Shown piece by piece: positions 10,771-48,565 of a stretch of DNA of 64,000 bases. Source of the stretch: an uncultured Oscillospiraceae bacterium (GTDB lineage: Bacteria; Bacillota; Clostridia; Oscillospirales; Oscillospiraceae). The translations under genes and the position numbers were made by a program. Position 1 is the first letter of the stretch; each line of letters begins with the position of its first letter. The notes beneath the pieces were generated by a model. It was not told where the DNA came from and did not search any database. It saw only the letters and a program-made list of their open reading frames with translations. The DNA lies in the NCBI GenBank assembly GCA_947626845.1, contig CANQTW010000009.1:1850-65849 (forward strand), read 5' to 3'.

Positions 10771-10823
10771 GCCATCACCTCATGGGGGCGTAAAAAATAA
10801 TTAAAAATATTTCAAAATAATGC

Positions 10824-10852
10824 TTGACAAATACTTTTCTATGTGGTATAAT
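10824..10852 (+). promoter_or_regulatory. orphan near-consensus promoter A (no downstream plus-strand gene)
   Basis: TTGACA - 17 nt - TGgTATAAT with an A/T-rich UP-like tract upstream. Confidence 0.55.
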
Positions 10853-10918
10853 ACATAAAGTCCGGTAAACTGAGCCGAACTATGCGGCGTTTTTTTCCTT
10901 TGCGCGGGCGGGTAAAAA

Positions 10919-12340
<1,422 letters not shown>

Positions 12341-47287: not shown

Positions 47288-47938
47288 TTGAAAAGAACCT
47301 ATGGCGCCCTGCCTGACTCCATGAGGGATATAGAGCTGTACGGATTCCATTGGATGGAATTTGTGGTGCAGATACCGTCCCCGCTCTATATCATTACCAC
47401 CTATAAAAGTAACGGCCTGACAAATGCCTGTATGCAGTCCTGGACCACCTTCACAGGCGGAAAAAACGGGTTCTATGCCATCGTCTCCTCTGTCAGCAAA
47501 TACGGCCACCTGTACAAGACGCTCCACGAGCGGAAGGACGCCGTCATCAACTTCATGTCCGCCGATCTCTACGACAGGTGTATGGCCACCATACGGCACA
47601 ACCGGTTTGACGAGGACGAGATCGCGGCAGCGGGGTTGACCGCCGCGAAGGCCGATCTGGTAGACGCGCCTATGATCGAGGAATGTTTCATCAATCTTGA
47701 ATGTCAGCTCAAATGGGAAAAGGAGATCGCCGAGGGGGACGATTCTGTTTTAATGTGCCTTGAGATCGTCAACGTCCATATGGACGAACGCCACCTTGAC
47801 GAAAACGACCTGGGTCGAACAGGAAAAACAGGGCTTCTCTATAACATCCACCACCCCATCGACCCTGAGCGGTTCAGCGGCACGGCGCACGATTACGTGG
47901 GCGTTGTGGAGAAAATTCGCGACTACGCGGAGTATTGA
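47288..47938 (+). CDS. flavin reductase-like FMN-binding protein
   Basis: TTG start preceded by AAGGAGGA. Flavin_Reduct-like core. Confidence 0.7.
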   Translation: MKRTYGALPDSMRDIELYGFHWMEFVVQIPSPLYIITTYKSNGLTNACMQSWTTFTGGKNGFYAIVSSVSKYGHLYKTLHERKDAVINFMSADLYDRCMATIRHNRFDEDEIAAAGLTAAKADLVDAPMIEECFINLECQLKWEKEIAEGDDSVLMCLEIVNVHMDERHLDENDLGRTGKTGLLYNIHHPIDPERFSGTAHDYVGVVEKIRDYAEY

Positions 47939-47983
47939 CGCCGGTAAACCAGGAAAGATACTTCCCTATTTTCTTAAAAAGCG

Positions 47984-48021
47984 AGCCGTAAGAAGGCGGA
48001 ATGTCCGGCCTTTTTACGGCT
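47984..48021 (+). terminator. terminator after the flavin reductase gene
   Basis: Nested stems AGCCGTAA..TTACGGCT and AAGGCGGA..TCCGGCCTT, with a TTTTT tract. Confidence 0.5.
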
Positions 48022-48067
48022 CTTTGGATTTATACAAAAATTAAATTAAAAATACTTAAAATAATAC

Positions 48068-48096
48068 TTGACATATGCTTTATCTTGTGCTATAAT
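48068..48096 (+). promoter_or_regulatory. orphan near-consensus promoter B (no downstream plus-strand gene)
   Basis: TTGACA - 17 nt - TGcTATAAT with an A/T-rich UP tract. 31/39 positions are identical to promoter A. Confidence 0.55.
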
Positions 48097-48220
48097 GCGA
48101 TTGTAACCGAATAGAGGGCAAAAGAGCTTCGGCGGAAAAGGGTTTTTCCGGCGGTGTAATAAGTATACCCTGAAGCAGAATGTCAAGCGCACTCAAGGCG
48201 GCGTTTTACCCACGCAAAAA

Positions 48221-48565
48221 TCAGGTGACGCCGATCTCCTTGATGTTGAACTCCCTCCCCTGGACAAGGTAGGTATTGCCGGAGCCGCAGTGGGGGCAGA
48301 TTTTGGCGTATTTCACCGTCTCGTAGTCCTCCCCGCAGTCCTCACAGTGGGTGACGGCGGGGATCTCCTCGATGATAAGCTCCGCCCCGTCCATGATAGG
48401 CTCCTTTTTCACCGCCCATTTCCAGCAGTCCCGCAAGAGGTCGTGGACCACGCCGGTGACCTCGCCGATCTCCAGCGTGACGGTCTGTACGCGCTCCGCG
48501 CGGTTCTCCTCCGCCACTTTTTTCACATCGCGGATAACGTAGAACACAACGCCCAGCTCGTGCAT
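48221..48565 (-). CDS. hypA: nickel metallochaperone HypA
   Basis: MHELGV N-terminus (MHE nickel site) and a zinc site CEDCG..CPHCG. The ATG overlaps the upstream stop codon (TAATG). Confidence 0.85.
   Translation of the reverse strand: MHELGVVFYVIRDVKKVAEENRAERVQTVTLEIGEVTGVVHDLLRDCWKWAVKKEPIMDGAELIIEEIPAVTHCEDCGEDYETVKYAKICPHCGSGNTYLVQGREFNIKEIGVT

Follow-up and report, generated by a model that had tools for sequence, protein, structure and literature searches.

A consensus promoter behind a hyp operon belongs to a repeated promoter cassette family in gut Oscillospiraceae and is predicted to fire antisense to the operon's 3' end

Excludons and noncontiguous operons have reportedly been found in Listeria and Staphylococcus. 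In Clostridium acetobutylicum, a convergent promoter downstream of the ubiG-mccBA operon gives rise to antisense RNAs that reduce the operon's expression through transcriptional interference, acting in cis (Andre et al. 2008, PMC2566862). Antisense promoters placed synthetically at the 3' ends of genes cause repression that scales with promoter strength via polymerase collisions (Brophy & Voigt 2016, PMC4731013), and promoter reuse, with putative mobile promoters, has been reported by Nijveen, Matus-Garcia & van Passel (2012, PMC3575422). Here we analyze a promoter, referred to as promoter B, in a 64,000-nucleotide stretch of DNA (the window) from an uncultured Oscillospiraceae bacterium. The host genome (G000) is a 91%-complete MAG of 2.58 Mb in 68 contigs; among public sequences it is closest to rabbit-gut Oscillospiraceae and a Faecousia MAG. 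The downstream promoter of ubiG-mccBA is the nearest characterised case. The reading that we favour, with our confidence about evenly divided for and against, is that promoter B is a functional sigma-A promoter from a reused cassette family, which drives non-coding transcription against the 3' end of the hyp operon, with an effect in cis. The features of the locus are listed in Table 1.

On the plus strand, positions 48068-48096 read TTGACA, a 17-nt spacer and TGcTATAAT, as a preliminary description of this DNA had it, and match the consensus at 12 of 12 positions plus the TG. Within the window, TTGACA-N14-TGNTATAAT, a pattern that includes the TG, is found at two positions, 48068 and 10824, and not once in 100 dinucleotide-preserving shuffles. 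Similarly, AATRCTTGACAWATRCTT, the pattern of the F2 signature (Table 1), has two matches in the window, with none expected. A/T makes up 92.5% of the 40 nt upstream of promoter B, against a genome-wide G+C content of 59%, which agrees with the UP-like tract described earlier. The locus combines -35 and -10 elements with a 17-nt spacer, within the 17 ± 1 nt expected, with a TG and an A/T-rich upstream tract, the features by which sigma-70/sigma-A promoters with an UP element and extended -10 are recognised. No coding ORF was found on the plus strand after promoter B, the nearest plus-strand coding gene in that direction being distant, and the earlier view that no gene follows it holds. These elements support promoter B as a genuine, strong orphan promoter of the sigma-A type that is aimed at the 3' end of hypA, and we infer that it fires.

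Table 1. Positions of the features of the promoter B locus and of the second cassette in the window
Feature	Position	Strand	Remarks
G+C-rich hairpin, A-run on one side, T-run on the other	47981..48025		-28 kcal/mol; 5 A before, 5 T after
A/T-rich UP-like tract	48026..48067	+	A-tracts ~10-11 bp apart; fits F2 consensus; 89% identity, 4 species
F2 signature AATACTT-GACA-TATGCTT	48063..48080	+	two 7-nt direct repeats flanking/overlapping the -35
-35 hexamer TTGACA	48068..48073	+	invariant in 4 orthologous loci
Extended -10 TGcTATAAT	48088..48096	+	TATAAT invariant in 4 orthologous loci; TG in 3/4
Predicted transcription start, G48103 or A48105	48103..48105	+	from the usual 6-8 nt spacing after the -10
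Predicted non-coding leader GUAACCGAA...GGCAAAA...hairpin...UAAGUAUACCCUG	48104..48171	+	80% identity, 4 species; other strand is part of the hypA 3' UTR
Hairpin CGGAAAA-GGGU-UUUUCCG	48133..48150	+	sole helix kept in relatives (three orthologous loci and one paralog)
46-nt insert	48172..48217		missing from three sister species; in all 7 strain contigs of this species
hypA	48221..48565	-	Pfam HypA; closes the operon hypB / Fe-S flavoprotein / hypA; proposed antisense target
Second F2 cassette of the window	10814..10852	+	asnS on one side (convergent), AAA+ ATPase gene on the other (divergent)

Promoter B lies downstream of the hyp operon and convergent to it, 125 nt from the hypA stop codon (48221). 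Pfam matches on the operon and its neighbours comprise HypA, cobW (hypB), Fer4/Pyr_redox on the Fe-S flavoprotein of 939 aa, and Flavin_Reduct on a plus-strand flavin-reductase gene (47288-47938) that is convergent to the operon. The G+C-rich hairpin between this gene and promoter B is preceded by an A-run and followed by a T-run, so that termination is possible in both directions. We infer that it is a bidirectional terminator at which the hyp operon transcript ends and which also serves the flavin-reductase gene. Among four species the hairpin is 83% identical, while the 36 nt on its left are only 38% identical. Homology to the three sister species in which this arrangement is shared (G001, G013 and G020) starts at ~47976, covers hairpin, promoter and leader, and continues into hypA. 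Three independent assemblies of the same species break at ~47975, and the coincidence of this break with the edge of homology indicates that the hairpin is part of the hyp transcription unit. Note that the neighbouring gene in G001 is apparently a different one (261 aa vs 216 aa). Promoter B is thus placed within the ~245-nt 3' UTR of the hyp operon, on the opposite strand, between stop codon and terminator, and hairpin, cassette and leader accompany hypA as one block, both between species and between strains. Two strain contigs vary in detail: on L141 no Flavin_Reduct gene was called beside the block, yet the 3' end of the gene is present in the alignment, and L143 carries the -35 variant TTGACG.

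In the host genome, 328 sites lie within one mismatch of TTGACA-16/18-TATAAT. Among the sites with an A/T-rich upstream tract there are two families of near-identical cassettes, F1 with 20 copies (consensus ...TGTTcACAAAAAaTTAATTATTTTTATtATATTTTTAC-TTGACA-AAtaa..TGTGg-TATAaT-cCaAa) and F2 with 35 copies (consensus taAAAAAtaatT.AAAAtattT.AAAAtAaTgC-TTGACA-AATgcTT..TgTG.-TATAAT-aCg). F2 includes promoter B as well as the promoter at 10824. The identity of 31/39 positions between promoter B and 10814-10852, pointed out in the preliminary description, was reproduced by a hand count. The two are nevertheless no special pair, as both belong to the 35-copy family, which stands alongside a 20-copy sister. 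The sequences transcribed behind the cassettes are mostly unrelated, with a few small paralog groups, and Rfam searches on forty cassette loci returned only chance matches driven by terminators. We considered whether the cassettes represent a general design of strong stable-RNA promoters and rejected this idea: among the consensus promoters within 400 nt upstream of tRNA genes none was F1 or F2, so the cassettes are not simply the local form of a strong promoter. F1 copies often carry an inverted repeat of variable sequence around the -10 (e.g. AATCGCCTCT..19 nt..AGAGGCGATT and ATACG..CGTAT), with examples in G000 at C7:19297, C24:17847, C22:4760 and C1:172596. Such a repeat is suggestive of a hairpin or operator that spans the -10.

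The cassettes have a marked preference in orientation. Of the 55 F1 and F2 cassettes, 48 (87%) face the stop codon of a convergent gene, with a median of 34 nt separating it from the -10 box. Among the 222 other consensus promoters located outside genes, the number is 40 (Fisher p = 5e-22, odds ratio 31); tested against 50:50, the cassettes give a binomial p of 1e-8. With 48 of 55 facing convergent 3' ends, the cassettes do not have the position expected of promoters upstream of, and in sense with, the genes that they serve. The gene calls for this count came from a crude codon-usage caller (2263 genes, 85% coding) and were checked for ten genes and for the window. All ten facing genes tested had Pfam matches above curated cut-offs in the stated orientation, among them members of the HAD, SDR, uridine kinase, transaldolase, AraC, DapB, RsgA and Rce1-like families. 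A strong hairpin is present 20-60 nt beyond the UP tract at about 30 cassette loci. Thus, the usual layout is the one seen at hypA, with stop codon, antisense cassette and hairpin in that order.

The genus is without detectable Rho, judging from profile searches of its genomes. The RNA-binding domain of Rho (PF07497) was found in none of the 38 genus genomes and was detected in the control genomes, and the full-length Rho model TIGR00767 reached only 34 bits in G000, compared to a cut-off of 509. In such a background, untranslated antisense RNA from promoter B would not be shortened by Rho, and would extend to an intrinsic terminator or to oncoming polymerases.

A family of this kind could also consist of spreading or reused cassettes that have no role specific to their loci and are tolerated at these sites because antisense orientation behind a gene does least harm. 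We consider this unlikely as an account of promoter B. Near-identical cassettes at unrelated genes, followed by mostly unrelated transcribed parts, are in keeping with such spreading. The patchy, lineage-restricted range fits as well: of 24 genus genomes searched, about 10 had cassette matches, only 4 other species among the 185,579 of the reference set contain the exact F2 23-mer, and presence or absence at a given locus varies among relatives. Moreover, reuse of promoters is an already described phenomenon (PMC3575422). Against these points, the F1 copies, which are near-identical over ~80 bp with sharp borders from ~-38 to +42 relative to the -35, have neither terminal inverted repeats nor target-site duplications detectable by eye in the flanks of the 20 copies, and no F1 copy was found in viral contigs. 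An origin of F1 from a transposon or MITE was rejected because inverted ends and flanking direct repeats were not seen by eye. In addition, tolerance alone would hardly produce the 48:7 bias in orientation in a genome without Rho, where antisense transcripts would not be shortened.

The distribution of the cassettes at individual loci bears further on this point. Behind hypA, the cassette occurs in G000, G013, G001 and G020 but not in the close relatives G051, G050 and G052, whose HypA proteins are 82-88% identical and which have a plain hairpin or another gene there instead. Since these three genomes keep hypA without the cassette, the cassette is dispensable for hyp function. The invariant hexamers at the hypA locus are, taken alone, weak evidence for selection because the four species are closely related (their third codon positions are 87% identical). 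The second cassette in the window, at asnS, is found in five species (G000, G020, G016, G024 and G005), with no more than 72-74% identity between the genes on either side. All five retain TATAAT and the TG, and 4-6 of the 6 positions of the -35 (TTGACA, TTGACT or TTGATT), whereas spacer and UP sequence vary, as does the distance from the asnS stop codon (about 12-70 nt). Retention of the -10, the TG and most of the -35 amid drifting surroundings indicates selection on promoter function at asnS, and argues against a copy that is simply tolerated. At another locus (query 2104-2552; G001 and G013), the cassette remained with the convergent gene after a rearrangement. The gap between asnS and the AAA+ ATPase gene (10771-10928 in the window) ranges from 13 nt in G051 and 16 nt in G052, both without a cassette, to 251 nt in G013; in G001, G013 and G010 it is occupied by G+C-rich hairpin repeats instead of a cassette.

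We also weighed a role at the level of the DNA or of its reverse side, be it as a protein site formed by the 7+4+7 direct-repeat box, as a roadblock at which RNA polymerase would stop transcribing the facing gene, or as a divergent promoter for the gene on the UP side, and consider it very unlikely. The box itself, AATRCTT-GACA-WATRCTT (18 nt), is specific to F2: F2 cassettes account for 27 of its 28 genome matches, and the consensus of 76 ordinary promoters lacks it. The layout of its 7-nt direct repeats, 11 bp apart across the -35, is reminiscent of OmpR/PhoB-type regulator sites. However, the box is also present in a few unrelated low-GC phage promoters, a finding that is uninformative on phage origin, so it may simply be a favoured -35 context; the hexamers that are conserved are, moreover, the forward ones. 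For a roadblock it can be said that many facing genes have no terminator before the cassette, because the median gap is 34 nt. A divergent promoter would make sense at about 10 loci, where the ribosome-binding site of the next gene abuts the UP tract and leaves no room for another promoter. The reverse strand, however, lacks a consistent -10/-35 pair, with TTTTNA at the expected place, and at hypA the UP side holds a terminator and no gene. As a general explanation a reverse-strand promoter was rejected, because neither the F1 and F2 consensus nor the five asnS orthologs have a consistent -10 suitably spaced from the quasi-palindromic TTGTCA.

Next to cis-antisense transcription, the preliminary description had proposed an unannotated small RNA. 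Taken as a stand-alone gene, this would yield a discrete, structured RNA of ~70-120 nt that acts in trans on distant targets, a reading that we find decidedly unlikely. Such an RNA should have an end, and six other cassettes are predicted to drive short RNAs with a hairpin plus U-run; at promoter B, in contrast, no hairpin plus U-run was found within 260 nt, and no plus-strand terminator before about 49180. The leader is not confined to one locus. An HMM built from the four orthologs only found a full-length paralog (G000:C21:5502-5589, E = 1.9e-4) that is immediately preceded by a bidirectional hairpin and another F2 cassette and reads antisense to a HAD hydrolase gene; the paralog has an ortholog in G020. 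These copies favour a small RNA. However, a covariance model of the leader retrieved from the 38 genus genomes its training loci, the ortholog in G020 and nothing else, that is, only six family members. Rfam searches of 47900-48400 at E <= 10, a check proposed for the downstream segment, gave no real match and only spurious terminator-like matches outside the leader; for the whole window at gathering thresholds they gave five tRNAs and nothing else. Likewise, neither Rfam nor the terminator search found a ligand- or signal-responsive leader (riboswitch or attenuator) at promoter B.

Concerning structure, the helices named in the preliminary description are all present in the minimum free energy fold of the window sequence, but only CGGAAAA/UUUUCCG is kept in relatives. 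Retention of this hairpin speaks for a small RNA, as do three G-U pairs that favour the plus strand; its core (48131-48156) is 90% identical, and the stem in the paralog reads CGGGA/UCCCG. The outer helix GCUUC/GAAGC, on the other hand, is not a conserved structure, as its GAAGC arm (48172-48176) sits in the species-specific 46-nt insert that is missing from relatives. The fold of the window sequence was no better than that of shuffles (MFE z = -0.26). For the shorter G001 version z was -2.6 (plus strand) and -2.3 (minus strand), values so similar that the fold does not select a strand. RNAalifold on five sequences (the four orthologs and the paralog) returned an unfavourable covariation term of +1.5 kcal/mol, with outer pairs broken in one or two of the five. 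The complementarity between the GGG of the loop and the downstream CCC, a candidate pseudoknot, is kept in three of the four orthologs, a small set of sequences.

Sequence conservation gave a similar picture. Mean pairwise identity among the four species was 80% for the leader, 89% for the UP tract, 63% for the spacer and 100% for both hexamers. The 87% measured at hypA third codon positions exceeds the value for the leader, which is thus without excess conservation; the transcribed part of the 120-nt segment, for which a conservation comparison had been suggested, does not rise above synonymous sites. With no terminator, no Rfam match and unfavourable covariation, a discrete structured small RNA does not emerge from the analysis, and of the two roles proposed earlier the evidence favours cis-antisense transcription of the hyp operon. 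Two short ORFs near promoter B were rejected as genes: a 30-aa ATG ORF (48180-48272), which starts in the insert and has no ribosome-binding site, and a 37-aa ORF given by gene callers over the promoter, which overlaps the terminator and the -35 and is spurious. The sequence GCGGCGTTTT...AAAAATCAG is common to the 46-nt insert and the region behind asnS (10880-10928).

We therefore return to promoter B as a cis-acting antisense promoter, for which the following course of events is proposed. Promoter B would initiate a non-coding RNA near 48103, with a leader of ~70 nt that forms one stable hairpin. Without an intrinsic terminator or Rho, this RNA would read antisense into hypA. Expression of the hyp operon would be dampened or truncated by head-on polymerases and by pairing of this RNA with the hyp mRNA at its 3' end, and strong hyp transcription would occlude promoter B in return. 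Note that this mechanism may not fit every member of the family, as the six other cassettes that are directly followed by a hairpin plus U-run would not reach far into the facing gene. The predicted paralogous RNAs of these six cassettes, ~55 nt in length (GUAAAGGC..GGGAGAGGAAAAUCUUCGGGGUC..GUUGCCUUUUU), amount essentially to one long hairpin plus U-run from the predicted transcription start. Their loci in G000 are C25:25439, C14:43855, C11:61025, C10:71610, C1:33791 and C5:53871; five face convergent genes, one is leader-like before a 466-aa gene, and none has an Rfam match.

More tentatively, and with rather more doubt than confidence on our part, the family as a whole may reflect a single process. 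A subclade of this Rho-less genus may have spread two families of optimal promoters, in backward orientation, into ~50 unrelated 3' UTRs, where they would act as a genome-wide antisense brake or insulator, perhaps co-regulated via the 18-bp -35 box and perhaps replacing factor-dependent termination. If the cassettes fire as predicted, they would represent a natural, family-scale use of 3'-end antisense promoters, a design so far known from single loci and from synthetic biology, in an organism that is unusual in not relying on Rho to limit antisense RNA. They would also provide a testable example of promoters being copied and employed with no transposon involved. Annotators of these gut Oscillospiraceae should take orphan consensus promoters as a repeated element and not each as a small-RNA gene.

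In comparison with known systems, the hyp locus would share with excludons and noncontiguous operons the principle that antisense transcription over neighbouring genes couples or opposes their expression. Those are individual loci in which the antisense RNA is an mRNA, whereas here a non-coding transcript is predicted to start from the promoter of a repeated cassette. The 'terminator plus antisense promoter' parts of synthetic biology (PMC4731013) likewise place a promoter, constitutive in these parts, at the 3' end of a gene so that it fires against the gene. Unlike these constructs, which were engineered in E. coli, the natural locus has the order stop codon, promoter, terminator, and its effect on hyp is a predicted one. 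The ubiG-mccBA operon (PMC2566862) also has, in Clostridia, a promoter behind the operon that points back at it and a structured non-coding leader. It differs in having an S-box riboswitch and a regulated terminator at a single locus, neither of which is detectable here, where ~55 near-identical cassettes exist. Finally, as in the groups of reused promoters (PMC3575422), highly similar promoters are found at non-homologous genes in one genome and its close relatives, with no recognisable transposon. In contrast to those groups, which were defined upstream of genes and in sense, 87% of the present copies lie behind genes, in antisense orientation.
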